DNA of 64,000 nt from Rhizobiaceae bacterium (lineage in GTDB: Bacteria; Pseudomonadota; Alphaproteobacteria; Rhizobiales; Rhizobiaceae), in NCBI GenBank assembly GCA_965198665.1, contig CBDAPT010000008.1, positions 378,809 to 442,808 on the forward strand, written 5' to 3'. Below are positions 1,514 to 32,834 of the stretch, one piece after another. Numbering within the stretch: the stretch's first letter is position 1; each line of letters opens with the position of its first letter. Made by a program: the position numbers and the translations under genes. The notes beneath the pieces were generated by a model. It was given only the letters and a program-made list of their open reading frames with translations, did not search any database and was not told the DNA's origin.

Positions 1514-1727
1514 AATGTTTCCCGGTAGTCATGAAAGATGAAAAACGTGCTTGATGTTGTTAGTTACATTTTGTGCAGATAAAAAATAGGCAATTCGTTC
1601 AATTGGCAACCGGGGGAGGTGAAATTCAACATTTATGCGCCTGCCAGACAACAGGCACTATAATTCAGATTGTCATTGAACTGTTGACGAACTAAGAATC
1701 AACTTTCTTGAAATGGAGGAGATAACA

Positions 1728-2765
1728 GTGAAAAATCTATCCAAACTTCTGGTCAAAGTGGGTGCCACTGCACTTTTGACCACCATGGTTGCAGCTTCTG
1801 CCTACGCGCAGGAAGTAACCCTGAAAATGCACCAGTTCCTGCCGCCGCAGGCAAATGTTCCCAAACTGGTTCTGGATGTCTGGGCCGACAAGGTCGAAAA
1901 AGCTTCCGATGGCCGCATCGATGTCCAGCATTTTCCTTCTATGCAATTGGGCGGCAAACCACCGGAACTCATGGATCAGGCGATTGACGGTGTTGCCGAC
2001 GTCATCTGGACGGTTGTGGGCTACACTCCAGGCCGTTTCCCACGGACAGAGGTTTTTGAGCTACCCTTCATGATGACCGACGCCGGTGCGGTTTCACGTG
2101 CCTACTGGCAGATGTTCGAAACCCACATGAAAGATGCTGACTTCAAGGATCTTAAAATTCTCGGAACCTGGGTGCATGGACCAGGGCTCATTCACGCAAA
2201 CAAGCCGATCCGTGAAGTAGCGGATCTCCAGGGAGTAAAAGTACGCGGTGCTTCGCGCACAGTTACCACCCTGTTTGAAAACTTCGGCGCTACTTCCGTC
2301 GGCATGCCGGTTCCCGCAGTACCGGAAGCACTATCCAAAGGCGTGATCGATGCAACCACCATCCCGTGGGAAGTAACGGCTGCACTCAAGGTACCCGAAT
2401 TGGTGAAAAATCATACGGAATTCTCTAACAAAGCGCTTTACACCGTGACTTTCGTACTCGCCATGAACAAGGCCAAATACGAAAGCCTGCCGGACGATCT
2501 TAAAAAGGTAATTGACGACAATTCCGGCGAGGAATTCTCGGTATTTGCCGGTGAAACCCAGGCCGGTGCTGACGGCCCTGCACGCGAAAAAGCGGTTGCT
2601 GCTGGCAACAACATCATCACTCTGACGGATGAAGAGGTTGCCAAATGGCGGGAAGCTGCACAGCCGGTCTACGACAAATGGATCGCTGACATGGATTCCC
2701 GTGGTATTGACGGCAAGGCCCTGATCGCGAAAGCCCAGGAGCTCATCAAGAAATATTCCAAATAA
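1728..2765 (+). CDS. dctP: TRAP transporter substrate-binding protein (DctP family)
   Basis: DctP-like translation with a signal peptide (VKNLSKLLVKVGATALLTTMVAASAYAQE). GGAGGAG at 1715-1721 lies 6 nt before GTG 1728, so I prefer that start over ATG 1713. Followed by dctQ/dctM homologues. Confidence 0.85.
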   Translation: MKNLSKLLVKVGATALLTTMVAASAYAQEVTLKMHQFLPPQANVPKLVLDVWADKVEKASDGRIDVQHFPSMQLGGKPPELMDQAIDGVADVIWTVVGYTPGRFPRTEVFELPFMMTDAGAVSRAYWQMFETHMKDADFKDLKILGTWVHGPGLIHANKPIREVADLQGVKVRGASRTVTTLFENFGATSVGMPVPAVPEALSKGVIDATTIPWEVTAALKVPELVKNHTEFSNKALYTVTFVLAMNKAKYESLPDDLKKVIDDNSGEEFSVFAGETQAGADGPAREKAVAAGNNIITLTDEEVAKWREAAQPVYDKWIADMDSRGIDGKALIAKAQELIKKYSK

Positions 2766-2801: not shown

Positions 2802-4096
2802 CTATGATGGTTGTCCAGCGGGAATGTTCTGCCCCGCGATCTTGAAGGCCGGAAAGTCCTCGAAGACCCAGCCGTTCTTGAGCGTGTCGTAGATGATCGC
2901 GAGCAGTTTACGTGCGGTCGCGATGATCGCCTTGCCGGCCCCGCGCCTGGCCTTGATGCGTTGGTAGAAGGCATTGAGGTAGCCCGAGTATCGGATGGCA
3001 ATGAGCGTGCACTGAACCAGCGTGGTGCGCATCAGCTTGTTGCCGCGTTTGGTGATCCGCCCCCGGTTGTCGGTTTCGTTCGACTGGCTGACGCGCGGGA
3101 CGATGCCCACATAGGCAGCCAGCTTGTCGGCGTCCTCGAAGTCATCGACGTTGCCGATCCCCGACAGGAGCACGGCCGCCGAGCGCGGACCGATGCCCTT
3201 GATTGAGACGAGGCCGTCGTAGCCATCCAGTTCCCGGGCGGCCTCTTCGATCGCACCGTCCAGTTCGCCAATCGTCGCCATAAGCCTCAGCGCCTGGTCG
3301 CGCAGGGCCTTCAACTCGACCTGTTCCAGTGTCGAGAACCGGCCGACCTCCAGAGCATTGAGCCGCCGCTTCGAGCCCAGGCTTTCCTTCTTCAGCTTGA
3401 CGCCGTGGCGCGTGTGCAGCGCATGGATCTTGTTGATGAGCCGGGTGCGCTGCTTGACCAGAAGATCGCGCGTGTGGGTGAGTGACGCCAACTCGCTCTC
3501 GGCAACCGTCTTCACACGCGTCTCGGGCAGCATGTCCTTCGACAGGAAGAAGGCCAGTGCCCGGGCATCGTTCCTGTCCGTCTTCTTCACCGACTTGCGG
3601 ATCACGCCGAACTGCCTCGGGTTGACCACGACAACACGGCCGACGCAAGCGACCACCTCGTCACGAAACCAGGCCGAATTGCCCGTCGCCTCCACGGCAA
3701 TCTCGTCGTCCGCATCAAGGCTCAGGCAGAACCGTTCCAGATCGGCCGCTGCCAGCTGGTAGGTTTCAAATATCTCGCTGCCGTCAGCTTCAAGCCGGCA
3801 GACCGTGAAAGACGTCGTGTGAAGATCGACACCGATAAAGGACATGGCTAAACTTCTCCCGTTGGTGAGCGGCGGAACCCTGACAAGGGTGTGAACGGCC
3901 ACGCCAAACTCCTATACGAGGTCACCGGACCGAACCGGGCCTCACGCTGGTCGTTCAGATACAGGCGGCGGGTAATCTCCTTTACAGGGTCGCAATGCCC
4001 TAAGATGACATCCAGCCTGCAGCCTATCCGCCTCTCCCAGCACTCTATCCGAGTCGGGATGCATGACCGCTCACACCCCATTCATGCCATCTCCTT
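2799..4096 (-). mobile_element. IS110-family (IS110 group) insertion sequence, copy A, 1298 bp, intact
   Basis: Boundaries come from aligning the three copies by eye. The common sequence runs from AAGGAGATGGCATGAATGG... to ...CAACCATCATAGGAG. No terminal inverted repeats; AGGAG is present at both ends. Confidence 0.85.
2802..3845 (-). CDS. IS110-family DEDD transposase/recombinase
   Basis: MSFIGVDLHTTSF...VEATGNSAW...KTDRNDARALA... has the IS110 N-terminal RuvC-like motifs. GGGAGA RBS precedes ATG 3845. The longer ORF from 3902 is probably an upstream extension. Confidence 0.9.
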   Translation of the reverse strand: MSFIGVDLHTTSFTVCRLEADGSEIFETYQLAAADLERFCLSLDADDEIAVEATGNSAWFRDEVVACVGRVVVVNPRQFGVIRKSVKKTDRNDARALAFFLSKDMLPETRVKTVAESELASLTHTRDLLVKQRTRLINKIHALHTRHGVKLKKESLGSKRRLNALEVGRFSTLEQVELKALRDQALRLMATIGELDGAIEEAARELDGYDGLVSIKGIGPRSAAVLLSGIGNVDDFEDADKLAAYVGIVPRVSQSNETDNRGRITKRGNKLMRTTLVQCTLIAIRYSGYLNAFYQRIKARRGAGKAIIATARKLLAIIYDTLKNGWVFEDFPAFKIAGQNIPAGQPS

Positions 4097-4738: not shown

Positions 4739-6057
4739 GTAACCTCGAAATTGGCATGCTTTCCATGCCGGTTCTTTTGCTGCTGATTTTTTTGCGCATG
4801 CCTATCGGCCTTGCCATGCTGGTATGTGGTCTTGGCGGCACCATGTGGATTACCGGCGGTTCGCTCGTCGTACTTGCCAAGCTCAAAAACGAAACCTATT
4901 CAACCTTTTCGAACTATTCCTTGTCTATCGTTCCGTTGTTTCTGCTCATGGGACAGTTTGCAACGCTGGGGGGCATGTCGACTGCCCTGTTCAAAGCGGC
5001 AGAAACCTGGCTGGGCCATAGAAAAGGTGGCGTGGCAATGGCGTCTGTCGGAGCCTGTGCGGGTTTTGGAGCTATTTGCGGTTCTTCACTTGCAACCGCT
5101 GCCACTATGGGACAGGTGGCTTTGCCGGAACTCAAACGGTACGGATATTCAGGCGGTCTTTCAACCGCTACACTGGCGGCAGGCGGCACGCTTGGCATTC
5201 TCATCCCGCCCTCCGTGGTTTTGGTGATTTATGCAATCATCACCGAACAGAACATCGCAAAAATGTTTCTGGCAGCCTTCATTCCGGGCCTGCTTGCGGC
5301 CCTTGGATACATCATCACCATCTCCGTGGTGATGCGGCTCAATCCGGGCAACGCACAACTGCGTGAGCGAGTTCCCTATGGCGAGCGCTTCAGGGCGCTG
5401 TTTGATGTCTGGCCGGTACTGCTGGTATTTCTTCTGGTCGTTGGCGGTATCTATCTTGGCTGGTTCACACCGACGGAAGCCGCGGCAATCGGCGCAGCCG
5501 GTACTGCGATCATCGCCTGGCGAAACAAGGGGCTGACCAAGAGCTCATTGTCAGAAGCAATCCTCGCTACAGCCAAAAACACAGCCATGATTTTCATCAT
5601 CATTCTGGGAGCCGGGTTTTACAATTCATTTCTCGCGCTCTCCCAGGTACCACAGGAAATTTCCGGCTTTATCGTTGAACAGGGGTTCAACCCGTGGCTG
5701 ATCCTGATCATCATCCTGTGCCTATACCTGATTTTCGGCTGTGTCATGGATTCCCTTTCCATGATCCTGCTGACGGTCCCCATATTCTTTCCGATCATAT
5801 CGGTTCTGGAATTCGGTCTGACCATCGAGGAAACCGCAATCTGGTTCGGTATACTGGTACTGATTGTTGTCGAGGTGGGCCTGATCACGCCGCCGGTCGG
5901 CATGAACCTGTTTGTCATTAATGCCATGGACAGAAGCACACGCATCGTTGAAACTTATCGTAATGTCTTTCCGTTTGTCATGTCGGATATCATCCGGACC
6001 GGCATCCTGATTGCATTTCCGGGAATTACCCTGTTTCTGTTGCGAATGTTTTACTGA
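4735..6057 (+). CDS. dctM: TRAP transporter large permease (DctM family)
   Basis: 440-aa polytopic membrane protein with DctM-like blocks (GGTLGILIPPS, PPVGMNLFV). Confidence 0.9.
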   Translation: MSNLEIGMLSMPVLLLLIFLRMPIGLAMLVCGLGGTMWITGGSLVVLAKLKNETYSTFSNYSLSIVPLFLLMGQFATLGGMSTALFKAAETWLGHRKGGVAMASVGACAGFGAICGSSLATAATMGQVALPELKRYGYSGGLSTATLAAGGTLGILIPPSVVLVIYAIITEQNIAKMFLAAFIPGLLAALGYIITISVVMRLNPGNAQLRERVPYGERFRALFDVWPVLLVFLLVVGGIYLGWFTPTEAAAIGAAGTAIIAWRNKGLTKSSLSEAILATAKNTAMIFIIILGAGFYNSFLALSQVPQEISGFIVEQGFNPWLILIIILCLYLIFGCVMDSLSMILLTVPIFFPIISVLEFGLTIEETAIWFGILVLIVVEVGLITPPVGMNLFVINAMDRSTRIVETYRNVFPFVMSDIIRTGILIAFPGITLFLLRMFY

Positions 6058-6891
6058 CCAGCAATCGGGAGGAGAAAATGACACAAGCCAACGAAAATGC
6101 CGCCCTCCATTTTGTTGATCGGCATGCCTCTGGCCCGCTTGGCGACAAGGCGGTATTTATCGAGGCAGATGGTGCCCAGCGCACCATGACCTATGCCGAG
6201 CTTGCCCATGAAAGTGGGAAGATGGCCGAATTTTACGAGGCAAACGGTATTCACCGGGAAGACCGGGCGGCAGTTCTTGTGCTGGACCAGATTGAATTCC
6301 CGGTGATATTCTGGGGCAGCCTCAAGGCAGGGGTTGTGCCAGTCGCCATAAACACGCTTTTGGCCAGCGATGTGTATGACGCAATCCTTCGCGACAGTCG
6401 GGCACGCATACTGTTCGTATCCCAGGCTCTGCTTGCGATTGTCGAACCGGTGCTGAAAGACAATCCCTATCTCGCAAAAGTGTTTGTGATCGGAGATGAT
6501 GCAGGTGCACATGAAACGTTCACAGGCGCTTTGGACAAATACCAGTCACGCGAAGCACTACATGTCACGGGCGAGGAATCGGCATTCTGGTTGTACTCCT
6601 CCGGATCCACCGGGCAACCCAAAGGTGTACGCCACGTTCATTCCAGTCTGAAATACACTGCCGACACTTATGGTGCACAGGTACTCGGCATAGAAGAGGC
6701 AGACACCGTGTATTCAGCGGCAACGTTCTTTTTCGCCTACGGCCTCGGCAACGCCATGACGTTCCCTATGTCTGTGGGTGCAACCACTATCATTCTGGCC
6801 GGACGACCGACACCGGACTCGGTTACCGAAACGCTCAATACGTACAAACCATCTGTCTTTTGTGGCGTCCCGACGCTTTATGCCGCCCTTA

Positions 6892-7958
6892 GAGCGTGTT
6901 CGCATCACGTGAATTCACAGCCGACTGCCCTGAAGAAATTCCGGCACTCCATTGGCGTGAACATATGGCAGACCTCTCCGATTGCCTTCCAGACATCATC
7001 GAAGGTTCTGGCGCCTGCCTTCCTCAGATGAGCCTTGAGCTTCGAAAAGGCCATTTCAATGGCATTGAGATCTGGGGAATATTTCGGCAGGAACAAAAAC
7101 CATGCGCCGATATCTCGCAAGATCTGCTCGGCTTTTTCGCTCTTGTGAGCGGCTAGGTGGTCAAGGATTACGACATCTCTCTTTTCCAGTTCTGGCGCCA
7201 ACTGTGTCTCAACATAAATCTCAAAGATTTCTTTGGTCATGGCCCGGTCAATAACCCAGGGCGCAACCAGTCCATGACTGCGCAGGCCTGCGATAAGTGT
7301 CTGCTTCTTCCAGTGGCCATGAGGGACAAAATCTATGAGGCGCTCTCCTGTTGGGGCCCATCCAGTTTGCTTGGCCATTTTGGTGTTTGTGGACGTCTCA
7401 TCAATGAAGACAAGTTTTTCAATCGACCGATTCAAAAACGGAACACGCCTTGTCTTCCAGAGTTCGCGGTCTTTTTTCACGTCGATGCGGTGTTGCTCCT
7501 TGGCATAAATAGTCTTTTTTTATGCGACAACCCGAAACTGCGCACAACATGCCAGACAGGCGAATGATGGACATTGAGGTTGAATTTTTCGTTCAGCTCC
7601 GCACAAAGCTTACGGATTGTAATGTCCTTTTGTTCATCAACCCGTTTTCGAAGCCAGTCTTTATAGGGTGAAAGCTTGCCATGGCCTGTTTTTCCCGGGT
7701 TATGTTTTGGAGCAAGCGAGCCAGTTTCACGTTTCAACTTCACCATATCATTCACAAATTTGACGGAGACTTTGAAATGGGCAGCCGTTCCACGATGAGT
7801 GTGGCCTTCTTCTACATGAGCTACAACACGTTTACGCAATTCAATCGGATGGGGCTTGGGCATTGAAAATCCTTGGCTTCGAACCGAATCAGGTCACCCC
7901 AATCAGAATCATATTCGCGCACGGAAAGAAACTGAATCTACTCGACACAAACACGCTC
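6892..7958 (-). mobile_element. IS630-family insertion sequence, copy 1 (1067 bp)
   Basis: Terminal IR GAGCGTGTT...AACACGCTC. TA present on both sides (6890-6891 and 7959-7960). Appears identical to copy 2 (same length, identical ORF translations). Confidence 0.9.
6905..7863 (-). CDS. IS630-family transposase, two overlapping frames joined by a predicted -1 frameshift
   Basis: orfA (7477-7863) is the HTH part and orfB (6905-7480) the DDE part. The A AAA AAA G motif (T-run 7515-7521 on the + strand) gives a continuous ...GLSHKKKTIYAKEQHRIDVKKDRELWK... after a -1 slip. Confidence 0.8.
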
Positions 7959-8529
7959 TAATGCGCATCTTGAAGGAGGAAAGGCGAAACTGGAAGTCAA
8001 CCTTCGACGGTGTATTTCTGCCGGCGAGGCCCTGCCCGCTGAAGTCGGCAAGGATGTAAGTAACAACGAAGTCGGAGAACTGCTCGTGAATGGCGATTCT
8101 GCAGCGGCGGATTATTGGAACCAGCGTGAAAAGAGCCGTGCAACCTTTGAAGGCGTATGGACACGCACCGGAGACAAATATGAACGTCGCGAGGACGGTC
8201 GTCACATCTATTGCGGAAGAACCGATGACATGTTCAAGGTTTCGGGGATTTGGGTTTCACCGTTTGAAGTCGAGCAATCGATTTCGTCCCATCCCGACGT
8301 ACTTGAATCCGCCGTTGTCCCGGCAAGGGATGATGAAGATCTGGAAAAACCCAAGGCATTTGTCATCCTCAAAGAAGGGGTAAGTTCCAACGGCATGGAC
8401 CAGATCCTGAAAGAACAGGTCCAACAACAAATAGGCAAATGGAAATATCCACGCTGGGTCGAATTTGTGTCCGAATTGCCCAAAACTGCAACCGGTAAAA
8501 TTCAACGTTTCAAGCTGCGGGACTGAACC

Positions 8530-9354
8530 ATGGCAGGATTCTGCTGGACACCAGGCAGCACGCAGTTCCTTGATGTGAACGGGCATAGTCTCGAGGCTGT
8601 TTGCTACGGCCCATCACCCGAACAGTCACCCACCATCGTCATGCTCCATGAGGGGTTGGGCTGTGTCGAACTCTGGCGCGATTTTCCAAAGGCCCTTTGT
8701 GATCGGACCGGCATGGGCGTATTTGTGTTCAGTCGCGCCGGTTACGGCAAATCCTCAGCCATTTCGCTGCCACGACCGCTGGACTATCAGTCGCGCGAAG
8801 CCATTGAGACATTGCCAAAAGTTCTGGATACGATTGGATTCAGGAACGGAATTTTGTTGGGTCACAGCGATGGAGCGACAATTTCAGCGATCTACGCCGG
8901 TTCGATTGAGGACTTCCGGGTTCGTGGGCTGATACTTATTGCACCGCATTTCTTCGGAGAGCCGGAAAGCTGGGCATCGATTAAAAGGGCAAAAATCGAC
9001 TACGAGACAACGGACCTCAAGGAAAAGCTAGCAAAATATCATGACAATCCGGACTGCGCCTTCCTGGGTTGGAACGGCGCCTGGCTGCACCGGGACTTCA
9101 GAAGCTGGAACGTTGCCGATGTAATCGATTATTTTCGGATACCTGTGCTGGCAGTTCAGGGAATCGACGACCAGTACGGAACGCTTGCGCAAATCGATGA
9201 GCTGGGAAACCGGATCTATTCACCTCTCGAAAAAGCGATCCTGGACGATTGCGGACATTCGCCACATCTTGAAAAGCCGGAAGAGACCCTCGCTGTGATC
9301 GAAGAATATGTCAAAAGGTTAAACCGGATTGAGGCGGAACAAGTGGCTCTGTAA
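8530..9354 (+). CDS. Alpha/beta-fold hydrolase
   Basis: 274 aa with HEGLG, a GHSDG nucleophile elbow and C-terminal ...CGHSPHLEKPEE. Lies between the ligase and boxC. Confidence 0.75.
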   Translation: MAGFCWTPGSTQFLDVNGHSLEAVCYGPSPEQSPTIVMLHEGLGCVELWRDFPKALCDRTGMGVFVFSRAGYGKSSAISLPRPLDYQSREAIETLPKVLDTIGFRNGILLGHSDGATISAIYAGSIEDFRVRGLILIAPHFFGEPESWASIKRAKIDYETTDLKEKLAKYHDNPDCAFLGWNGAWLHRDFRSWNVADVIDYFRIPVLAVQGIDDQYGTLAQIDELGNRIYSPLEKAILDDCGHSPHLEKPEETLAVIEEYVKRLNRIEAEQVAL

Positions 9355-9442
9355 CCAGACCATTTATGAATTATAGTTCATTAACACCAACCTGACATGC
9401 ATTATTATTCTCAAAGTTGCTTATTCTTTCCGGACTTCTTTG

Positions 9443-11107
9443 ATGAATAAAACCGTTGATTTTCAGACCGATCCGTCCCGCTATCGGCACTGGCGCGTGG
9501 AATATGAAGGCAATACAGCTCGCCTGATCATGGATGTTGACGAGAACGGGGGTCTGTTTGAAGGCTACGAGCTGAAGCTCAATTCTTACGATCTCGGAGT
9601 GGAAATCGAGCTCGCCGACATCGTGCAGCGCATGCGCTTCGAGCACCCGGAAATTGGTGCGGTCATTATGGAATCCGGCAAGGAGAAGGTATTTTGTGCT
9701 GGCGCCAACATTCGCATGCTGGGCGGAGCTGAGCATGCGCACAAGGTGAATTTCTGCAAGTTTACCAACGAGACGCGCAACACCTATGAGGCGGCGGCAG
9801 AAGAATCCGGACAGCATTATATTGCAGCGGTTAAGGGTGCGTGCGCCGGAGGCGGTTACGAACTTGCACTTGCCTGCGAAAAGATTTTCATGACCGATGA
9901 CGGTTCGACATCCGTCGCCCTGCCGGAAGTTCCGCTTCTTGCGGTTCTACCGGGCACCGGCGGCCTCACACGCGTGACGGACAAACGCAAAGTCCGCCGT
10001 GACCGTGCCGATGTATTCTGTTCCATCGAGGAAGGGGTTCGCGGCAAACGGGCAGAAGAATGGCGTCTGGTTGATGCGGTGGTGGCTAACTCCAAGTTCG
10101 ACGAGTTTGTGAAAACTCAGGCGCAGGAAATAGCTGACAAGGCCAAGGCCGGCAACGACATGAAAGGCATAAAGCTTACCGCTCTCGATCGGACATTTCA
10201 TGAGGATGGTTCAATTGTCTATTCCCTCGTGGAAGTCGACGTTGATGCAGATGCCCGACTTGCAGCCATCACGCTCAAGGGACCCGACACCCCTGTGCCG
10301 CAATCAATCGATGCCTTGCATCAAGAAGGAGCGGGCAACTGGGCGCTTCGACTGGCCCGTGAGCTGGATGACGCCATCCTGCACCTTCGCCTCAATGAGC
10401 TGGAGCTTGGCGTCATCGTATTCAAGTCCGTCGGCGATCCACAGCAGGTTATCGCCCATGAAACCTTTCTTACTGAAAACCGGTCACAGGATTGGCTGTC
10501 ACGGGAAATATTGCTCTACTGGAAGCGCGTTCTCAAACGCATCGATATGACATCGCGGTCACTGGTTGCTCTGGTAGAAAACGGCTCCTGCTTCGCCGGT
10601 CTCCTCGCCGAAATCCTGTTTGCGGTTGACCGTACCTACATGATGGAGGGAGATTTCGAAGAGGATAACCGGCCGATCGCAACCGTTACACTGAGCGCCA
10701 GCAATTTCGGCACGTTCCCAATGGCCAACGGGCTTTCACGTCTTGAGACCCGCTTCCTTGGCGAACCGGACATGGTTACCACTGCAAAAGAAGCTGCCGG
10801 TGAGGCCCAGGAGGCTTTTGACGCGGATGAACTTGGTCTGATTACCGAAGCCTATGACGAACTCGACTGGGAAGACGAAGTTCGCATAATCCTTGAGGAA
10901 CGGGCAAGTTTCTCACCCGATGCCCTGACCGGCATGGAAGCCAATCTGCGTTTCGTCGGTCCCGAAACCATGGAAACACGCATTTTCGGTCGCCTGACTG
11001 CCTGGCAGAACTGGATATTCCAGCGGCCCAACGCCGTTGGCGAAGACGGTGCTTTGCAACGATACGGAACCGGAAAACGCGGCCAATACGATATGAGGAG
11101 AGTTTGA
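9443..11107 (+). CDS. boxC: 2,3-epoxybenzoyl-CoA dihydrolase / benzoyl-CoA-dihydrodiol lyase (BoxC)
   Basis: About 554-aa crotonase-superfamily protein. Its N-terminus (MNKTVDFQTDPSRYRHWRVEYEGNTARL) and size match BoxC as I remember it. Immediately followed by boxB with a TGATG overlap. Confidence 0.8.
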   Translation: MNKTVDFQTDPSRYRHWRVEYEGNTARLIMDVDENGGLFEGYELKLNSYDLGVEIELADIVQRMRFEHPEIGAVIMESGKEKVFCAGANIRMLGGAEHAHKVNFCKFTNETRNTYEAAAEESGQHYIAAVKGACAGGGYELALACEKIFMTDDGSTSVALPEVPLLAVLPGTGGLTRVTDKRKVRRDRADVFCSIEEGVRGKRAEEWRLVDAVVANSKFDEFVKTQAQEIADKAKAGNDMKGIKLTALDRTFHEDGSIVYSLVEVDVDADARLAAITLKGPDTPVPQSIDALHQEGAGNWALRLARELDDAILHLRLNELELGVIVFKSVGDPQQVIAHETFLTENRSQDWLSREILLYWKRVLKRIDMTSRSLVALVENGSCFAGLLAEILFAVDRTYMMEGDFEEDNRPIATVTLSASNFGTFPMANGLSRLETRFLGEPDMVTTAKEAAGEAQEAFDADELGLITEAYDELDWEDEVRIILEERASFSPDALTGMEANLRFVGPETMETRIFGRLTAWQNWIFQRPNAVGEDGALQRYGTGKRGQYDMRRV

Positions 11108-12558
11108 TGCTTGATCTTGTAAATGTGGAATACGACACCCTCATTCCGAATAATGTCGGACTGTCTTCGGACAAACGGGTGCAGAAAGCGCTCGAAAAGT
11201 GGCACCCCGGTTACATCAACTGGTGGAACGACCTGATCCCCCAGAATTTTCAGAATTCACTGGTTTATCTGCGCACAGCGGTTTCGGTGGATCCCAAAGG
11301 CTGGGCAAAGTTCGATTACGTGAAAATGCCCGAATACCGTTGGGGCATACTGCTGGCACCGCAGGTTGAAGACCGTAAAATTCCGTGCGGCGAACATGCC
11401 GGTGAAGACGCTTGGCAGGAGGTTCCGGGAGAATACCGGGCCATGTTGCAGCGCCTGATTGTCATTCAGGGAGATACCGAGCCAGGCTCTGTGGAACAAC
11501 AGCGTTTCCTCGGCCTCACCGCCCCTTCACTCTATGATATGCGCAACCTGTTCCAGGTAAACGTCGAGGAAGGGCGCCATCTCTGGGCCATGGTTTACCT
11601 GTTGCAGAAATATTTCGGCAAGAACGGCCGTGAGGAAGCCGATGATTTGCTACGCCGTTCATCCGGTTCCGAAGAGGCCCCGCGAATGCTTGGTGCATTC
11701 AACGAGCAAACGCCGGACTGGCTCTCTTTCTTCATGTTTACCTACTTTACCGATCGAGACGGCAAGATGCAGCTGGAGTCCCTTGCACAGTCGGGATTTG
11801 ACCCCCTGTCCCGCACCTGCCGCTTCATGCTGACCGAAGAAGCACATCACATGTTCGTTGGCGAAACCGGTGTTACCCGTGTCATTCAGCGCACCTGCGA
11901 AGCGATGAATGAAGCAGGGATTACAGATCCTTACGATATCGACAAAATTCGCGATCTCGGGGTCATCGACCTGCCTACAATTCAGAAGAAGCTCAACATG
12001 CACTATTCTCTATCGCTGGATCTTTTCGGGCAGGAAGTCTCAACAAATGCCGCCAATGCATTCAATGCAGGCATCAAGGGAAGGTTTATGGAAAACCGCA
12101 TAGACGATGATCACCGGCTGACCGATGCAACATACCCGGTTGTCCAGCTCGAAGATGGTGAAATCAAGTTGAAGGACGTTCCGGCCCTGACAGCGATAAA
12201 CATGCGGTTGCGGGACGATTACAAGAAGGATGCTTCTGGCGGGGTTGGTCGCTGGAACAAGATCATCAAAAAGTCCGGCATCGAGTTTGAGATGATATTG
12301 CCGCATGAAGGCTTTCATCGACAAATAGGCGTCTTCTCGGGATGCCCACTCACACCGGAGGGAGATATGATTTCCACCGAGGAGTGGGAAAAACGGCGCG
12401 ACGAGTGGCTCACCACCAAAGCTGATGGAGATTTCATCCAGTCCTTGATGGTGCCTTGTTTTGAGCCGGGCAAATACGCCGGCTGGATTTCTCCTCCCCG
12501 TGTCGGCATCGACAACAAACCCGGCGACTTTGAGTATGTAAAGCTGCACATGGCCTAG
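11107..12558 (+). CDS. boxB: Benzoyl-CoA 2,3-epoxidase, diiron oxygenase component (BoxB)
   Basis: About 483 aa with diiron-type EEGRH and EEAHH motifs. Size and context are typical of BoxB. Confidence 0.85.
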   Translation: MLDLVNVEYDTLIPNNVGLSSDKRVQKALEKWHPGYINWWNDLIPQNFQNSLVYLRTAVSVDPKGWAKFDYVKMPEYRWGILLAPQVEDRKIPCGEHAGEDAWQEVPGEYRAMLQRLIVIQGDTEPGSVEQQRFLGLTAPSLYDMRNLFQVNVEEGRHLWAMVYLLQKYFGKNGREEADDLLRRSSGSEEAPRMLGAFNEQTPDWLSFFMFTYFTDRDGKMQLESLAQSGFDPLSRTCRFMLTEEAHHMFVGETGVTRVIQRTCEAMNEAGITDPYDIDKIRDLGVIDLPTIQKKLNMHYSLSLDLFGQEVSTNAANAFNAGIKGRFMENRIDDDHRLTDATYPVVQLEDGEIKLKDVPALTAINMRLRDDYKKDASGGVGRWNKIIKKSGIEFEMILPHEGFHRQIGVFSGCPLTPEGDMISTEEWEKRRDEWLTTKADGDFIQSLMVPCFEPGKYAGWISPPRVGIDNKPGDFEYVKLHMA

Positions 12559-12570
12559 AAAAGAACCTCC

Positions 12571-13818
12571 ATGACACACACGATTGCAATCATCGGTGCC
12601 GGGCCTGCAGGTTGCTATGTGGCGCAGGCACTTAGAAAGGCCTGTCCGGAAGCAGAAATTACCGTGATTGACCGACTTCTCACTCCATACGGGCTGGTGC
12701 GTTACGGGGTAGCTCCTGATCACCAGGGAACCAAGGCCGTTGTGCGGCAGTTTTCCCGGCTGTTTGAGAAGCACGGCGTGCACTTTCTGGGTAATCTGGA
12801 AATCGGAAACGATTTGAAACTTGAAGAGCTCACTGACTGCATGGATGCAGTTGTCATCGCAACCGGACTTCATCGCGATCGGACACTCGAAGTTGATGGA
12901 GCAAACCTAAATGGGGTCTATGGGGCAGGTGAAGTAACGCGCTGCTGGAACGCCCACCCGGACAGCGAAGGCTTTTTGACTGAATTTGGTAAAACAGCAA
13001 CCGTTCTGGGCAATGGCAATGTGGCGATGGATATCATACGCGTGCTGGCCAAGTCGGAGGCCGAACTGCAAGGATCCGACCTTGACCCTTCCCAGGTTAA
13101 CACTACGGTGGACACCATCCACATAATCGGACGCTCACCCCTGGAAAACGCCAAGTTTGATCCGACACTGGTTCGGGAATTGACCAACATTCAAGGGCTG
13201 CAATGCCGCCTAGAGGATGGAGATCTGTTTTCAGCAGATCCGGAAGTGCCAATGCATGCAGCTCTTCAGGAGTTGTTCTCGTCCCGCGTGGATAATCCGG
13301 ACAAAGAGATTATTTTTCACTCCGGATGGTCGGTTGAGGCAATAGTAGGAACGGCGGAAAAGGTTGGCAGTGTCTCATTGCGAAAAACCAATGGCGAGCA
13401 ACGAAAAACCGTTTACTGTAACTCCATAATCACAGCAATCGGATTTGAAAACGAAAACCACATCGACCGCGAAAGCCTTGTCGGTAACGCCAGCGCAATT
13501 GAAAATGGTATTCTCAAACCAGGACTTTTCGCAGCCGGTTGGTTCAAGACTGGGCCGAACGGCACAATTCCTGAAAATCGCCTTGCCAGCCAGCAGGTTG
13601 CAGGCAATATTGTTGACTGGCTGCAGCAAACAACGGGCAGTAAACCCGGCAAACAGGCTATTCTGGAAAGGCTTGGCGATCAGATAACCGATTATCAGGA
13701 CTGGCTGGCGATAGACCGTATGGAAATCGAAACGGCTGCACCCGGTCGCTGCAGGCAAAAGTGGTCTTCCAAAGAAAAAATGTTTCAGACAATTGAGAAT
13801 CAAAGGCAGGTTTCATGA
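12571..13818 (+). CDS. Adrenodoxin-reductase/FprA-type NADPH:ferredoxin(flavodoxin) oxidoreductase
   Basis: IIGAGPAGCY, YGLVRYGVAPDH, VLGNGNVAMDIIRVL, AAGWFKTGPNGTI. No Cys-rich Fe-S cluster motif. Occupies the position where boxA would be expected. Confidence 0.75.
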   Translation: MTHTIAIIGAGPAGCYVAQALRKACPEAEITVIDRLLTPYGLVRYGVAPDHQGTKAVVRQFSRLFEKHGVHFLGNLEIGNDLKLEELTDCMDAVVIATGLHRDRTLEVDGANLNGVYGAGEVTRCWNAHPDSEGFLTEFGKTATVLGNGNVAMDIIRVLAKSEAELQGSDLDPSQVNTTVDTIHIIGRSPLENAKFDPTLVRELTNIQGLQCRLEDGDLFSADPEVPMHAALQELFSSRVDNPDKEIIFHSGWSVEAIVGTAEKVGSVSLRKTNGEQRKTVYCNSIITAIGFENENHIDRESLVGNASAIENGILKPGLFAAGWFKTGPNGTIPENRLASQQVAGNIVDWLQQTTGSKPGKQAILERLGDQITDYQDWLAIDRMEIETAAPGRCRQKWSSKEKMFQTIENQRQVS

Positions 13819-14273
13819 AAGTTGGACTGTTATTCGGAACAGAAACAGGCAATGCCGAATTGCTGTGCGATGATATCGAAGAAGAATTGGGAAGCGATTT
13901 CGAGTGTGAGATTGCTGATCTTGGAGACATTGCGCCGGATGATTTGACCGCTGATCGCTTCTACATCATTGTTACGTCGACGTATGGCAACGGCGATCTG
14001 CCGACAAACGCTACCGATTTCTTCGATGCGCTGGACGAACAGCGTCCTGATCTCACCGGTATTCGTTTCGCAATATTCGGACTGGGTGACCAGGTCTTTG
14101 ACCAGACCTTCAATCAGGGTTCCGAACGACTGAAAGATTTGCTGGTTGAATGCAAGGCCACCATGGTGGGCGAGCGGGGATTGCATGATGCATCTTCCGG
14201 CGAGGCACCGGAAGACATAGCGCTTCCCTGGCTACAAACGGTATTGCCTGAACTTGTTTCGGAGGCTGCATGA
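13815..14273 (+). CDS. Flavodoxin
   Basis: 152 aa. MKVGLLFGTETGNAE FMN-phosphate loop and STYGNGDLP. ATGA overlap with the reductase gene. Confidence 0.8.
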   Translation: MKVGLLFGTETGNAELLCDDIEEELGSDFECEIADLGDIAPDDLTADRFYIIVTSTYGNGDLPTNATDFFDALDEQRPDLTGIRFAIFGLGDQVFDQTFNQGSERLKDLLVECKATMVGERGLHDASSGEAPEDIALPWLQTVLPELVSEAA

Positions 14274-14321
14274 AACCCCTTCAACCGGGCAGACACAAAA
14301 ATTTGCGGGAACAGGATTAAA

Positions 14322-15236
14322 GTGAGCGCTGCAAAAACCAAAAATAAGGAGCCCCGAAAATCCGATCCGGATGCGGTTGAGGAATTTGTCGCAAATGTCG
14401 GCCTCAAGGTTCGTCTGATCCGAACACGCCGTAACCTTTCGCGACGAGAACTATCGGAACTTTCGGGAATTTCAGAGCGTTATCTTGCACAGCTGGAAGC
14501 CGGGCACAGCAATGTTTCGGTAGCACTGTTGTTCAGAATCGCAAAAGCTCTGGACAAGACGCCCGACTGGTTTCTCGGAAACGAATTCATGGATGATGAA
14601 GTTTTTGATCTTGTCCAGAAATACAAATCTGCCAATCCGATATTAAAGGAGCAGGTAACTGATCTTCTCGACTCCAGCCTGGCAAACTCCCACAAAGCCG
14701 AACGCATATGTCTGATAGGACTGCGCGGGGCTGGCAAGTCAACCCTGGGCAGGCTGCTGGCAAACCACTTCGGGTTCGAATTTATCGAATTGAATAAACT
14801 TATCGAAAACGAAAGTGGCATGCCGGTATCAGAAGTCATCGCACTATACGGCGCAGAGGGTTACCGCCAGCGTGAACACGCGCTGATCAACGCACTGAGC
14901 GAACGGCAGGACAAGGTGGTGCTGGCTGTCGGCGGGGGAATCGTTTCTGACAGCAATACCTTTAACCGGATCCTTTCAAGCTTTCATTCGATTTGGCTGC
15001 GGGCATCCCCGCAGGAACACATGCAACGGGTGCGTGATCAGGGTGACTACCGCCCTATGGCGGGAAATCCCAATGCAATGGACGACCTGAAATTGATCCT
15101 CACAAACCGTGAGGAAGCATACTCAAAGGCAGACATTACAGTGGACACATCAGGGCAAACCGTGGAACAAAGCAGCAATGCCGTTTTCGAAGCAATCCGA
15201 AATCTGGTGTTACGATCCTATCACGAAACAGCGTAA
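14322..15236 (+). CDS. boxR: BoxR/BzdR-type regulator (XRE HTH fused to a shikimate-kinase-like domain)
   Basis: N-terminal XRE HTH (LSRRELSELSGISERYLAQLEAG) plus a C-terminal P-loop GLRGAGKSTLGRLLA shikimate-kinase fold. This domain architecture is that of BzdR/BoxR. Confidence 0.75.
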   Translation: MSAAKTKNKEPRKSDPDAVEEFVANVGLKVRLIRTRRNLSRRELSELSGISERYLAQLEAGHSNVSVALLFRIAKALDKTPDWFLGNEFMDDEVFDLVQKYKSANPILKEQVTDLLDSSLANSHKAERICLIGLRGAGKSTLGRLLANHFGFEFIELNKLIENESGMPVSEVIALYGAEGYRQREHALINALSERQDKVVLAVGGGIVSDSNTFNRILSSFHSIWLRASPQEHMQRVRDQGDYRPMAGNPNAMDDLKLILTNREEAYSKADITVDTSGQTVEQSSNAVFEAIRNLVLRSYHETA

Positions 15237-15261
15237 AAGCGGGACCGGAAGGCAAATCCAG

Positions 15262-16752
15262 GTGGCAGGCACACAATCCGAATTCAATTTCGACAACAGC
15301 TTTGCAAAGGAGCTTGAAGGTTTTTATGTGCCTATAAAGGGGCATGACGCTCCAAAGCCGGAATTGGTTCGCCTTAACGAGAGCCTTGCAGCAGAACTAC
15401 AGCTTGATGCGGAATTTCTGAGTTCGGACGCTGGAGTGGAAATCCTCTCCGGCAAACAGGCCCCCGAGGGTGCTTACCCACTGGCACAGGCCTATGCGGG
15501 CCATCAGTTTGGCGGATTTTCGCCCAGCCTCGGTGACGGAAGAGCTATGTTGCTTGGTGAGGTTATTGATCTCGACGGCGTGCGCCGCGATATCCAGTTG
15601 AAGGGGTCCGGTCGCACCCCGTTCTCCCGCAACGGCGATGGCAAAGCTGCACTCGGGCCCGTTCTGCGCGAATATATTGTCAGTGAAGCTATGCATGCCC
15701 TGGGAGTTCCAACCACCCGCTCGCTTGCAGCAGTGACAACCGGAGAACAGGTGTATCGGGAAGTTCCTTTGCCCGGCGCGGTACTCACCCGCATTGCATC
15801 CAGCCACCTGCGCATCGGCACGTTCCAGTTTTTTGCAGCTCGCAACGATGAGGCGAAGGTGAAACAATTGGCAGACTATGCGATTAACCGCCATTACCCG
15901 TCTCTCAATGAACATCCGGACAAGTACCTTGAATTCCTGAAAGCCGTGATTTCCGTTCAGGCCTCACTTGTGGCGCAATGGATGGCAATTGGATTCGTGC
16001 ATGGTGTCATGAACACGGACAACATGACCATTTCCGGAGAGACCATCGATTATGGTCCCTGCGCTTTCATCGATGTGTTTACAGAAAACGCCGTATTCAG
16101 TTCGATTGATGAAACCGGTCGTTATGCCTATCGCATGCAACCCCTGATCCTGCAATGGAACCTGGCACGCCTGGCAGAGTGTCTGTTGGGCCTGATAGAC
16201 AATGAAGACAAGGACAATGCCGTGCGTGTCGCAACGAACGAACTGAATGTTGTGCCGGAAATCTACAAGAAACAGTGGCTGGAACGGATGGGTGCGAAAA
16301 TCGGGTTGAAAGAACCAGTCGCTGAAGACAACAAACTGATCGAGAACCTGCTCAAAGTGATGGAAGATGGCAGGGCTGACTTCACAAACACATTCAGGGC
16401 ACTTGCGATGGCCGTGGAAAAAAATGATCAGCCGTTTCTCGAACAGTTTTCGGAAAGCACTGTTAATCCCGCCAAGGACTGGCTGGCGGACTGGCGTTCC
16501 CGGACAAGACAGGAAACCGTCTCTGACGATGATCGCATTGAGCAAATGAAACAAGCCAACCCGCATTACATTCCGCGCAACCATTTGGTTGAAGAGGCAA
16601 TCCGGGAGGCTGTTTCGTCAAACAATCTGGAGCCCTTTACTTCATTGATGACAGTTCTTGAAAAGCCGTTTGACGAACAGGACGGCACAGAGAAATACAC
16701 CCGAGGTGCACCAGCGGATTCCGGTCCTTACATAACCTTTTGTGGAACATGA
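15262..16752 (+). CDS. selO: Protein adenylyltransferase SelO (YdiU/UPF0061 family)
   Basis: FDNSFAKELEGFY..., AYAGHQFGGFSPSLGDGRAMLLGEV, LKGSGRTPFSR, HGVMNTDNMTISGETIDYGP. The start is uncertain; GTG 15262 is the first start after the boxR stop. Confidence 0.8.
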   Translation: MAGTQSEFNFDNSFAKELEGFYVPIKGHDAPKPELVRLNESLAAELQLDAEFLSSDAGVEILSGKQAPEGAYPLAQAYAGHQFGGFSPSLGDGRAMLLGEVIDLDGVRRDIQLKGSGRTPFSRNGDGKAALGPVLREYIVSEAMHALGVPTTRSLAAVTTGEQVYREVPLPGAVLTRIASSHLRIGTFQFFAARNDEAKVKQLADYAINRHYPSLNEHPDKYLEFLKAVISVQASLVAQWMAIGFVHGVMNTDNMTISGETIDYGPCAFIDVFTENAVFSSIDETGRYAYRMQPLILQWNLARLAECLLGLIDNEDKDNAVRVATNELNVVPEIYKKQWLERMGAKIGLKEPVAEDNKLIENLLKVMEDGRADFTNTFRALAMAVEKNDQPFLEQFSESTVNPAKDWLADWRSRTRQETVSDDDRIEQMKQANPHYIPRNHLVEEAIREAVSSNNLEPFTSLMTVLEKPFDEQDGTEKYTRGAPADSGPYITFCGT

Positions 16753-16826
16753 AATTGACCTCAGAATTCGGCCATTAGTTGTTTTCATCCCGCGAGATTC
16801 GTGGTTTCATCCATGACAATAAGAAC

Positions 16827-17868
16827 AAGGAGATGGCATGAATGGGGTGTGAGCGGTCATGCATCCCGACTCGGATAGAGTGCTGGGAGAGGCGGATAGG
16901 CTGCAGGCTGGATGTCATCTTAGGGCATTGCGACCCTGTAAAGGAGATTACCCGCCGCCTGTATCTGAACGACCAGCGTGAGGCCCGGTTCGGTCCGGTG
17001 ACCTCGTATAGGAGTTTGGCGTGGCCGTTCACACCCTTGTCAGGGTTCCGCCGCTCACCAACGGGAGAAGTTTAGCCATGTCCTTTATCGGTGTCGATCT
17101 TCACACGACGTCTTTCACGGTCTGCCGGCTTGAAGCTGACGGCAGCGAGATATTTGAAACCTACCAGCTGGCAGCGGCCGATCTGGAACGGTTCTGCCTG
17201 AGCCTTGATGCGGACGACGAGATTGCCGTGGAGGCGACGGGCAATTCGGCCTGGTTTCGTGACGAGGTGGTCGCTTGCGTCGGCCGTGTTGTCGTGGTCA
17301 ACCCGAGGCAGTTCGGCGTGATCCGCAAGTCGGTGAAGAAGACGGACAGGAACGATGCCCGGGCACTGGCCTTCTTCCTGTCGAAGGACATGCTGCCCGA
17401 GACGCGTGTGAAGACGGTTGCCGAGAGCGAGTTGGCGTCACTCACCCACACGCGCGATCTTCTGGTCAAGCAGCGCACCCGGCTCATCAACAAGATCCAT
17501 GCGCTGCACACGCGCCACGGCGTCAAGCTGAAGAAGGAAAGCCTGGGCTCGAAGCGGCGGCTCAATGCTCTGGAGGTCGGCCGGTTCTCGACACTGGAAC
17601 AGGTCGAGTTGAAGGCCCTGCGCGACCAGGCGCTGAGGCTTATGGCGACGATTGGCGAACTGGACGGTGCGATCGAAGAGGCCGCCCGGGAACTGGATGG
17701 CTACGACGGCCTCGTCTCAATCAAGGGCATCGGTCCGCGCTCGGCGGCCGTGCTCCTGTCGGGGATCGGCAACGTCGATGACTTCGAGGACGCCGACAAG
17801 CTGGCTGCCTATGTGGGCATCGTCCCGCGCGTCAGCCAGTCGAACGAAACCGACAACCGGGGGCGGAT
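16827..17868 (+). mobile_element. IS110-group element, copy B, 3'-truncated by IS21
   Basis: Appears identical to copies A and C from AAGGAGATGG... up to ...CAACCGGGGGCGGAT, where the IS21 terminal TGTCAATG... begins. Confidence 0.85.
17078..17868 (+). pseudogene. Truncated IS110 transposase (first ~263 codons)
   Basis: Same translation as copies A and C up to ...ETDNRGRI. After that the ORF reads into IS21 sequence. Confidence 0.85.
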
Positions 17869-17935
17869 TGTCAATGTTCAATTAAAACTGACCCTGTATT
17901 TCCATTTAAAACTGACCCACCGTTTTTGCATGCAA

Positions 17936-17984
17936 GCCCCCGGACGATCAGCTCTCCAATTGCAAGATCGTCCGGGGGCTTTTT
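17936..17984 (+). terminator. Strong hairpin plus T-tract inside the IS21 end
   Basis: 14-bp perfect stem GCCCCCGGACGATC / GATCGTCCGGGGGC with a 16-nt loop, followed by TTTTT (17980-17984). Confidence 0.55.
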
Positions 17985-17988
17985 CTGA

Positions 17989-18723
17989 TCAGGATTGAGT
18001 TTTTTGTTTTTTGCTTTGAGCAAACCGGTATGATGCATTCCCGGTTTCTATAATGGTGCAATGATGGGTAATTCGGTCCAGCAGTGCGGTTGTCATCTTT
18101 GCATCTGCGAAGACCTGCGTCCATTCCCCGAACTCCAGGTTGGTTGTAATGATGACGCTTGTCTTCTCGTACAGTTTGCTGATCAGATGGAACAGTAGCG
18201 CTCCGCCGGACTTTGGGAACGGAATATAGCCGAGTTCATCAATAATGACGCAATCCAGTGCGCATAATTGCCGTACGATCCTTGCGGTATTTCCCTCTGC
18301 CTGTTCACTGATCAGCGCATTGATCAGGTCGACAGCATTGAAGAACCGAATTCTCTTGCCGTGATTAACAAGCGTTGTTCCAAGAGCAATGGCAATGTGG
18401 GATTTTCCAGTTCCCGTTCCACCAACCAGAATCAGATTATGTGCATCGGCAATAAACTGTCCGGAACACAAGGGTTCAATCTGTGTTCGGGTTACAGCCG
18501 CCGCATCATAATCGAAGGTGGCAAAGTCCTTGTGATGAGGGAAGTTTGCACTGCGCATTTGATACCGGACCGAACGCACCCTTCGTTCCACGGTCTCTGC
18601 CTCTATCAACTGCTTTATCGCCGTGGCCAGGTTTGGCGGCTGACGTGCACTTAGCAAGTCCTGTGCGCAAGAGGCCATTCCATGCAATCTCAACCCTGCC
18701 AGCTGTTCAATGAGGCCGTTCAT
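17989..18723 (-). CDS. istB: IS21 helper ATPase IstB
   Basis: 244 aa with Walker [12 protein letters not shown] and Walker B VIIDELGY. Overlaps the istA stop. Confidence 0.9.
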
Positions 18724-26045: not shown

Positions 26046-26061
26046 TGTCTCTCTCCTAACC

Positions 26062-29066: not shown

Positions 29067-29067
29067 T

Positions 29068-31809: not shown

Positions 31810-31811
31810 TG

Positions 31812-32654: not shown

Positions 32655-32834
32655 TGCACGCCACCTCAAGCCACGCGGAACTGAAATGCCATATCGAAAT
32701 TTTCAAGCTCCTCAACCATCTAATCTGGAACCTGTTCCTTAACCTCCTGTCACCAGCAGGTTATTGTTAGCATACAAATAAAAATTTTGTTTGTAAACAT
32801 CGTTAGGGGAGCTCATTTCAAGACGCATGGAGCA

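Follow-up and report, generated by a model that had tools for sequence, protein, structure and literature searches.

Flavoproteins at the position of BoxA: an adrenodoxin-reductase-like protein and a flavodoxin follow boxB in a box cluster of a Rhizobiaceae bacterium

BoxA and BoxB form the textbook two-component epoxidase of the aerobic benzoyl-coenzyme A (CoA) pathway. In a stretch of 64,000 nucleotides (nt) from a Rhizobiaceae bacterium (contig CBDAPT010000008.1 of assembly GCA_965198665.1, positions 378,809 to 442,808; hereafter the window), we identified a box-type benzoate cluster in which two other genes occupy the position of boxA. The first encodes a flavoprotein of the adrenodoxin reductase (AdR)/FprA type that binds flavin adenine dinucleotide (FAD), and the second a short-chain flavodoxin, the carrier of flavin mononucleotide (FMN). 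We propose that the two proteins would form an iron-sulfur-free electron chain that supplies BoxB and replaces BoxA. From the sequence comparisons reported below, we put the probability of this reading at roughly 70%. The oxygenase, the pathway and the type of redox module are already known; their combination is new. Full-text searches on boxA, boxB or benzoyl-CoA together with flavodoxin gave no description of this arrangement.

Two flavoprotein genes lie between boxB and boxR

The assignment of the cluster relies on BoxB and BoxC, whose full-length matches exceed the equivalog cutoffs of their families (Table 1). Residues 8-482 of BoxB also align with the solved BoxB structure (PDB 3PER, E 1.6e-204). 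The genes are tightly packed. The end of boxC overlaps the start of boxB in the sequence TGATG, with a GAGGAG ribosome-binding site ahead, and only 12 nt separate boxB from the reductase gene. The reductase stop and the flavodoxin start overlap in ATGA at 13815-18, exactly the coupling that the first-pass annotation of this DNA had reported for a flavodoxin of 152 amino acids (aa). No terminator-like site was found on the + strand between 8400 and 17000, and none precedes selO.

The same annotation had described the cluster as devoid of a canonical BoxA, and our searches agree. BoxA is a single polypeptide with two [4Fe-4S] clusters and an FAD/NADPH module of the ferredoxin-NADP+ reductase (FNR) type (PMC4498308). 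Neither tblastn with a bona fide Mycetohabitans BoxA (from locus L001 of our comparison set) nor the BoxA profile TIGR03224 revealed a BoxA encoded in the 64-kb window. In particular, tblastn gave no match over positions 9000-17000, and TIGR03224 is absent from the NCBIfam matches of both the reductase and the flavodoxin. Neither protein carries the two N-terminal CxxCxxCxxxCP motifs that bind the [4Fe-4S] clusters of BoxA, nor its C-terminal FNR-type module (FAD_binding_6/NAD_binding_1). As controls, TIGR03224 (cutoff 459) returned 529 bits for the BoxA of locus L008, and 293 and 181 bits for the BoxA relics of L087 and L088 described below.

The sole CxxCxxCxxxC motif of the window, at about 22380 on the - strand, falls inside a ferredoxin of the FdxA type. 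Weak tblastn matches to BoxA in this region (21335-22770, - strand) were considered as a hidden BoxA and rejected, as they correspond to separate FdxA and Fpr-like FNR genes with no match to TIGR03224. The former is a 7Fe ferredoxin (Fer4 + DUF3470, 138 bits with a cutoff of 135) and the latter scores 124 bits, below its cutoff. Placed one after the other, the two genes jointly mimic the domain content of BoxA. They lie 7 kb off the cluster, on the opposite strand and behind an IS110 and an IS21 element, and neither of the syntenic loci L004 and L005 contains them.

The reductase and the flavodoxin have the features of their families

The 415-aa product of the first gene had been described as an AdR/FprA-type flavoprotein without an iron-sulfur cysteine cluster, and this description holds. 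All four motifs quoted for it are located in the translation (GAGPAGCY at residues 9-16, YGLVRYGVAPDH at 40-51, GNGNVAMD at 147-154 and GWFKTGPNG at 323-331), and its seven cysteines are scattered, with no CxxCxxCxxxC motif in the translation. The protein therefore bears the signature of the AdR/FprA family (GAGPAG at 9-14, GNGNVA at 147-152, GWFKTGPNG at 323-331), and the residues of the FAD, NADP and C-terminal flavin motifs are invariant across 36 homologues. Its best solved relatives are bovine AdR (1cjc, E 8e-43) and FprA of Mycobacterium tuberculosis (1lqt, E 2e-36). The similarity spans the whole length in both sequence and fold: the AlphaFold model, with a mean predicted local distance difference test score (pLDDT) of 92.1, reaches template modelling scores (TMq) of 0.88-0.90 to 1e6e and 1cjc and of 0.87 to 1lqt, and the next fold class scores only 0.61. 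From sequence and model, we propose that this protein acts as the NADPH:flavodoxin reductase of the epoxidase. The adjoining, translationally coupled flavodoxin provides circumstantial evidence that it would reduce a small one-electron carrier in an NADPH-dependent manner.

The second protein matches the flavodoxin profile PF00258 well above its gathering score of 25 bits. It contains the FMN phosphate loop GTETGNAE at residues 8-15, where E10 and G12 are invariant in 32 family members, and the FMN loops GTETGN, TSTYGNGDLP and FGLGD are strictly kept across the family. The best solved relative by sequence is cindoxin (PDB 4oxx, E 2.9e-28), which is also the best fold match of the model (pLDDT 90.3; TM score 0.88, root-mean-square deviation 2.0 Å, 37% identity). 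With 152 aa and no long-chain insertion, the protein has the five-stranded alpha/beta fold of short-chain flavodoxins. The flavodoxins are strongly acidic, with net charges of -18 to -25.

Flavodoxins in the BoxA slot form a distinct clade

A search with the window flavodoxin returned 247 clusters of homologues at E < 1e-20. The best 120 of these 247 are all at least 55% identical to the query, and those named after an organism all derive from marine alphaproteobacteria or from unclassified Pseudomonadota metagenome-assembled genomes (MAGs). We inspected the genomic context of five further family members with 55-64% identity, namely those of Thalassococcus sp. S3 (L115), Tateyamaria omphalii (L116), L117 (a contig present in 23 assemblies), L119 and L120. 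All five genes lie between boxB and a thioesterase gene or boxR, with no reductase. The flavodoxin thus occurs in cultured bacteria, which include T. omphalii and Thalassococcus sp. S3. The thioesterase (4HBT family) found 3' of the flavodoxin also follows BoxA in BoxA-type loci, where we detected it in 52 cases; the flavodoxin therefore occupies exactly the position of BoxA.

We defined the box-cluster flavodoxin clade as flavodoxins that share at least 55% identity with that of the window and lie directly 3' of boxB in place of boxA. This definition applies to 14 of 14 loci (the window, L004, L005/7, L010, L047, L066, L078, L087, L088, L115, L116, L117, L119 and L120). The more distant flavodoxins that we checked (30-52% identity; L002, L003 and L090-L096) are not box-linked. 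Neighbour-joining trees place the box-linked flavodoxins together in a single clade and the non-box flavodoxins outside it. The tree of the reductases is broadly congruent with that of the flavodoxins, with the non-box reductase of L090 nested among the box-linked ones. The flavodoxin, and not the reductase-flavodoxin pair, is the constant element of the replacement.

BoxA and the flavoproteins exchange places in otherwise similar clusters

To compare the cluster with its relatives, we scanned species-representative genomes with the window BoxB and classified the closest 80 loci (83-94% identity) by tblastn. All of them come from marine Alphaproteobacteria, either MAGs related to Rhizobiaceae, Hoeflea and Nitratireductor or members of the Roseobacter group. 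BoxA lies directly 3' of boxB in 73 of the 80 loci, in one of which (L044) it was detected only in part. The alpha/beta hydrolase gene is conserved in box clusters and precedes boxC in nearly all 80, and boxR follows either BoxA or the flavodoxin in all related loci except one. Among the closest BoxA-type loci, L008 (BoxB 89% identical) has the order dctM-bcl-hydrolase-boxC-boxB-BoxA-boxR-selO. Its flanks are the same as in the window, with BoxA where the reductase and the flavodoxin sit, which argues for a swap in place. In the window, as in L004, L005 and L008, which are closest to it, boxR is directly followed by selO, in clusters of the BoxA type and of the flavodoxin type alike; no selO was detected at this position in the remaining related loci.

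The window is not a singular case, but one member of a widespread marine alphaproteobacterial variant. The order boxC-boxB-reductase-flavodoxin-boxR recurs in four other lineages, represented by L004 and L005 (reductase 58-59% identical) and by L087 and L088 (51-52%), and L007, on the same contig as L005, has the reductase and the flavodoxin as in the window. The same gene order with reductases that are only 51-59% identical is not a chance juxtaposition. The conservation around L004 and L005 is wider still: dctP is the first gene of a dctPQM-bcl-hydrolase-box cluster with identical order in both, and DctM is 90-92% identical to its counterparts there. Four further loci (L010, L047, L066 and L078) have the flavodoxin alone between boxB and boxR (56-62% identical to that of the window), with neither a reductase nor BoxA within 8 kb. 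The largest unidentified flanking open reading frames (ORFs) of these four loci were examined as candidates for a dedicated reductase and rejected, as their Pfam matches (ALAD, SHMT, 3HCDH, FAA hydrolase and others) bear no relation to flavin reductases.

Two loci have the pair together with what remains of BoxA. In L087, the relic 3' of the flavodoxin covers only positions 112-411 of the BoxA profile and lacks the iron-sulfur domain; in L088, it is a truncated piece of 227 aa. A plausible series, whose direction we infer, runs from BoxA to the pair with BoxA devoid of its iron-sulfur domain, then to the pair with a BoxA fragment, and finally to the pair only, as in the window. The relic of L087 is part of a 462-aa fusion (L087:9761-11149) of the BoxA FNR module with the 4HBT thioesterase of the box cluster, encoded right after the reductase and the flavodoxin. 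This fusion could act as a second, BoxA-derived flavodoxin reductase.

A metagenome scan with the reductase, using lineage-specific patterns, returned 22 distant loci, none of which has boxB; most are relatives with an adjacent flavodoxin. Both genes are present in each non-box relative whose locus reaches far enough beyond the reductase. The pair therefore appears to have been recruited as a unit, with the reductase later lost in many lineages, where a housekeeping reductase presumably takes over. In the tree of BoxB, the flavodoxin-type loci are scattered, and Fitch parsimony requires 4-11 switches between types (median 7, 60 bootstrap replicates). This distribution points to the exchange of downstream genes between box clusters.

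Two observations made during this comparison concern other variants of the cluster. Five flavodoxin-type loci have a cysteine-rich ORF of 61-70 aa between boxB and the flavodoxin or reductase gene (L087:7784-7996, L089:903-1106, L115:9772-9963, L116:9787-9972 and L047:9456-9614). It has no family match and, in Thalassococcus and Tateyamaria, it shows the pattern Cx3Cx2Cx3C followed by a conserved acidic helix. We detected this ORF only in box loci of the flavodoxin type, never in the BoxA type, and it is absent from the window. Moreover, one box cluster (L011:5128-10688) is devoid of any reductase component, with neither a flavodoxin nor an AdR-like reductase; it has a class-V aminotransferase gene between boxC and boxB, and a SnoaL-like gene in the BoxA slot.

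Selection on the pair and a partner-specific residue of BoxB

Both the reductase and the flavodoxin are under purifying selection. When the window, L004 and L005 are compared, nonsynonymous sites diverge by 0.26-0.29 in the reductase, 0.12-0.18 in the flavodoxin and 0.04-0.05 in BoxB. Synonymous sites are saturated (proportion of synonymous differences, pS, 0.71-0.89), and we therefore report the contrast between pS and its nonsynonymous equivalent, pN, and not a dN/dS ratio.

BoxB itself differs according to its presumed partner. Residue 389 is a lysine in all five loci with reductase and flavodoxin, in 7 of the 14 flavodoxin-type loci and in none of the 74 BoxA-type loci. Conversely, an alanine occupies this position in 42 of the 74 BoxA-type loci and in no flavodoxin-type locus. 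The association has a P-value of 5e-7 (Fisher test, not corrected for phylogeny). By alignment, Lys389 of the window BoxB corresponds to Ala380 of 3PER. A new basic residue on BoxB would fit the docking of a strongly acidic flavodoxin.

Comparison with known redox systems

The window shares with Aromatoleum (Azoarcus) evansii BoxB, BoxC, BoxR, the ligase and hydrolase neighbours and the requirement for two electrons supplied by a pyridine nucleotide. It differs from the BoxAB system of that species in the reductase component, which here comprises two polypeptides whose folds are unrelated, an FAD protein of the glutathione reductase type and an FMN flavodoxin, and no iron-sulfur cluster. A similar arrangement of tiers, from NADPH through an FAD reductase and an FMN flavodoxin to an oxygenase, is found in the cytochrome P450 (P450) system P450cin of Citrobacter braakii, which runs from NADPH to cindoxin reductase, cindoxin and CYP176A1 (PMC9687028). 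In the window, however, the acceptor would be a soluble diiron epoxidase that acts on a CoA thioester instead of a haem P450. No P450 (PF00067) was detected among the operon genes or the approximately 50 window ORFs scanned, and the cluster thus does not qualify as a P450cin-type system. In a search of plasmid sequences, the window reductase proved 40% identical to that of a reductase-flavodoxin-P450 operon on a Klebsiella plasmid.

The degradation of hexahydro-1,3,5-trinitro-1,3,5-triazine (RDX) in Rhodococcus and Gordonia offers another parallel, since XplB is an AdR-like flavoprotein that feeds a flavodoxin domain (PMC10820124). The XplB homologue of Gordonia KTR9, adjacent to a 552-aa P450 of the XplA type, is 40% identical to the window reductase. 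In XplA, the flavodoxin is fused to the P450, whereas the window flavodoxin is free and its acceptor would be BoxB. The similarity to bovine AdR and M. tuberculosis FprA concerns the fold and the FAD and NADP motifs (TM scores of 0.87-0.90). In this case, sequence identity is only 24-25%, the window protein is about 40 residues shorter, and its presumed partner is a flavodoxin, not a [2Fe-2S] or 7Fe ferredoxin.

Close relatives of the pair are found in operons for Rieske oxygenases, enzymes that normally use ferredoxins. On plasmid pOM-1 of Nitratireductor sp. OM-1 and on plasmid pDSM107133_b of Pseudosulfitobacter, the same two genes occur in identical order, the stop codon of the first overlapping the start codon of the second, and their products are 42-44% (reductase) and 43-46% (flavodoxin) identical to those of the window. 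Their neighbours are different, namely the alpha subunit of a Rieske oxygenase and genes of the meta-cleavage type, with no box genes. On these two plasmids (L002:1-9715 and L003:1-9682), the pair stands last in an operon whose other genes encode the Rieske oxygenase alpha subunit, short-chain dehydrogenases/reductases, an extradiol-type VOC protein, a thiamine diphosphate enzyme and an aldehyde dehydrogenase. This context suggests that the same module may also serve Rieske oxygenases. In L090, the reductase is 52% identical to that of the window and lies outside any box cluster, with a P450 gene about 4 kb away. Judged by these homologies, the pair is one more portable NADPH-FAD-FMN redox module of a type already known.

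Insertion sequences and the state of the cluster in this strain

The window contains at least eight insertion sequences (ISs) in 64 kb: four ORFs of the IS110 type, two IS630 elements, one IS21 istAB pair and one IS30-like element (Table 1). Two of them interrupt the upstream half of the cluster. An IS110-family transposase gene separates dctP from dctQ, which are adjacent in L004 and L005. In addition, an IS630-family element splits the benzoate-CoA ligase gene at residue 273. When the intact 512-aa ligase of L005 is aligned to the window by tblastn, residues 1-273 map on one side of the element and residues 272-511 on the other. The element has inverted repeats of 29 nt (6889-6917 and 7933-7961), a TA target duplication and transposase ORFs at 6905-7480 and 7477-7863. 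ORFs with the same IS110 profile are also found at 50209-51309 and 17021-17998, both on the + strand; the latter, which at 325 aa is shorter than the 366-aa copy at 2802, borders directly on the IS21 element and may be cut by it. Since the orthologous clusters of L004 and L005 are intact, these insertions are recent and secondary.

Table 1. Features of the window, with positions relative to its first nucleotide
Feature	Position	Strand	Evidence or remark
Box-type benzoate cluster	1.7-16.8 kb	+	
dctP, solute-binding subunit of a tripartite ATP-independent periplasmic (TRAP) transporter	1713..2765	+	PF03480, 167.7 bits
IS110-family transposase, between dctP and dctQ	2802..3902	-	PF01548 + PF02371, 366 aa
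dctQ, TRAP membrane subunit	4148-4738	+	PF04290
dctM, TRAP membrane subunit	4735-6057	+	PF06808
Benzoate-CoA ligase, N-terminal part (residues 1-273)	6078..6896	+	TIGR02262, 305 bits, profile positions 4-281 of 508
IS630-family element	6889..7961	-	DDE_3 + HTH_Tnp_Tc3_2
Benzoate-CoA ligase, C-terminal part (residues 272-511)	7960..8526	+	tblastn with L005 ligase, 64.6% identity
Alpha/beta hydrolase	8530..9354	+	PF00561, PF12697
Promoter-like site ahead of boxC	9381..9408	+	10/12 hexamer matches, consensus match only
boxC	9443..11107 (ORF from 9440; ATG at 9443)	+	TIGR03222, 920.6 bits, cutoff 712.3
boxB, oxygenase subunit of the diiron benzoyl-CoA 2,3-epoxidase	11107..12558 (ORF from 11104)	+	TIGR03225, 904.7 bits, cutoff 499.1
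AdR/FprA-type FAD flavoprotein, 415 aa	12571..13818	+	Pyr_redox_2
Cindoxin-like short-chain flavodoxin, 152 aa	13815..14273	+	PF00258 (Flavodoxin_1), 80.8 bits
boxR-type regulator, HTH_3 + shikimate-kinase-like domain	14322..15236	+	NF006015, 357.7 bits, cutoff 204
selO, protein adenylyltransferase	15109-16752		directly 3' of boxR
IS110-type ORF	17021-17998	+	
Insertion sequence	17989-20219	-	
IS630, second copy	22883-23955		
Insertion sequence	36918-37952	-	
Insertion sequence	45475-46443	-	
IS110-type ORF	50209-51309	+	

A putative electron chain and its alternatives

Electron transfer from FMN to a diiron centre is known elsewhere, in NrdI with class Ib ribonucleotide reductase and in flavodiiron proteins. 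In the chain that we propose for the window, NADPH would donate a hydride to the FAD of the AdR-like protein, which would pass on electrons one by one to the FMN of the acidic flavodoxin. The flavodoxin would then dock transiently on BoxB and reduce its diiron centre, where O2 would be activated and benzoyl-CoA epoxidised, and BoxC would finally hydrolyse the epoxide and open the ring. The pair probably derives, as a unit, from the kind of reductase-flavodoxin cassette that supplies P450s (P450cin, XplA) and Rieske oxygenases. It would have been inserted ahead of boxA, which would then have lost its iron-sulfur domain and later vanished. In many related bacteria, the dedicated reductase would have been lost afterwards, leaving the flavodoxin alone in the BoxA slot. 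All electron-transfer steps are inferred. Since catalytic amounts of BoxA suffice and its contact with BoxB is transient (PMC4498308), a swap of partners is plausible.

The first-pass annotation had gone as far as a non-orthologous replacement of BoxA by the pair. Displacement by iron-sulfur-free flavoproteins stands, supported by synteny, by the intermediates and by purifying selection. The idea of the pair as a conserved unit does not: in the survey of box clusters, the pair recurred in L004, L005, L087 and L088, but most clusters of the flavodoxin type have no reductase. This result is one of several that weigh against our reading, since 9 of the 14 flavodoxin-type loci lack an AdR-like gene nearby and the reductase is thus not obligatory. 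It is also the fastest evolving of the three proteins compared, at about six times the divergence of BoxB. Furthermore, the Arg-Arg of AdR, which we take to bind the 2'-phosphate of NADPH, is only half conserved in the alignment (GRS in the window, GRRG in AdR). In L087, the intact FNR module of BoxA could itself reduce the flavodoxin. In this strain, benzoate activation via the cluster is probably disabled by the split ligase gene, and the operon may be unused. Finally, the search for BoxA in the source genome covered 64 kb of a 608-kb contig.

Given this coverage, a canonical boxA elsewhere in the genome might encode the real reductase of BoxB, with the pair in an auxiliary or conditional role, for example under iron limitation or oxidative stress. 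Box clusters devoid of boxA and complemented by a second cluster have been reported in surveys (PMC10803450), and L087 is an example of the new pair side by side with an FNR module derived from BoxA. However, the BoxA remnants beside the pair are degraded and not duplicated, and no complete BoxA lies within 7-10 kb in any of the 14 flavodoxin-type loci. A weak indication in the same direction is that none of the 120 closest relatives listed for a Tateyamaria BoxA comes from T. omphalii, Tateyamaria SN3-11 or Thalassococcus S3. Overall, we consider a second, functional boxA unlikely. We find it quite improbable that the pair is unrelated to BoxB, as would be the case for a mobile redox module that serves a P450 or Rieske oxygenase elsewhere, or flavodoxin-dependent metabolism in general. 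Close relatives of the pair (42-52% identity) do occur in non-box contexts, in the plasmid-borne Rieske operons and near the P450 gene of L090, and the window is full of ISs, but none of these borders the pair. Furthermore, flavodoxins with at least 55% identity form a clade whose members lie in the BoxA slot in 14 of 14 contexts, in genomes that are otherwise different. The loss of BoxA coincides with the presence of the flavodoxin, and residue 389 of BoxB changes with the type of partner. Most improbable of all is that BoxA was simply lost while the whole cluster was turning into a pseudogene in an IS-ridden genome. The two ISs in the upstream half of the cluster and the number of copies in the window would fit such decay. 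Nevertheless, all five genes from boxC through the pair to boxR have their full length and score highly against their families, and in L004 and L005 this arrangement comes with a complete 512-aa ligase and is free of ISs. In addition, the IS630 element in the ligase gene and its second copy are identical over the 300 nt compared (22883-23182), so that the insertion is recent and secondary.

Supply of BoxB by the iron-sulfur-free flavoproteins therefore remains our preferred reading for the window. In its widest form, the proposal is that many marine Alphaproteobacteria, from the Roseobacter group and Rhizobiaceae-like bacteria to the cultured Tateyamaria and Thalassococcus, run the box pathway with a dedicated flavodoxin in place of the eight-iron BoxA. 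This iron-sulfur-free, possibly iron-sparing supply to a diiron epoxidase of the BoxB/PaaA class would have arisen once and spread between box clusters, and the window would represent its complete form, with its own NADPH:flavodoxin reductase. We advance this generalisation tentatively, as a proposition a little short of even odds.

Other genes of the window

Outside the box cluster, the region at 25467-32669 on the - strand encodes a 913-aa protein of the xanthine dehydrogenase family (Fer2 + Fer2_2 + MoCoBD), an FAD_binding_5 subunit, two AA_synth (PF06684) proteins and two large ORFs of 497 and 314 aa without Pfam match. This gene cluster may encode a system that hydroxylates an aromatic or heterocyclic compound. 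A 507-aa flavin-containing monooxygenase (FMO-like; 46705-48228, - strand) adjoins the IS30-like element and the gene of a periplasmic binding protein.

Implications

If the flavodoxin, with or without its AdR-like partner, does the job of BoxA, the soluble diiron epoxidases of CoA esters would gain a flavodoxin-driven member. The cassettes of the P450cin and XplA/B type would then prove to be portable, with diiron and probably also Rieske oxygenases among the enzymes that they supply. The switch from ferredoxin to flavodoxin is a known iron-sparing strategy of ocean microbes, and the replacement of the eight iron atoms of each BoxA by flavins would fit it. This idea is attractive but speculative, because loci of the BoxA type and of the flavodoxin type both come from marine sources. 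The cultured and fully sequenced carriers of the box flavodoxin make the role of the flavodoxin directly testable. A recent survey of the pathway scores clusters without boxA as incomplete (PMC10803450). If the flavodoxin does replace BoxA, a substantial group of abundant marine bacteria would be misclassified by such calls.

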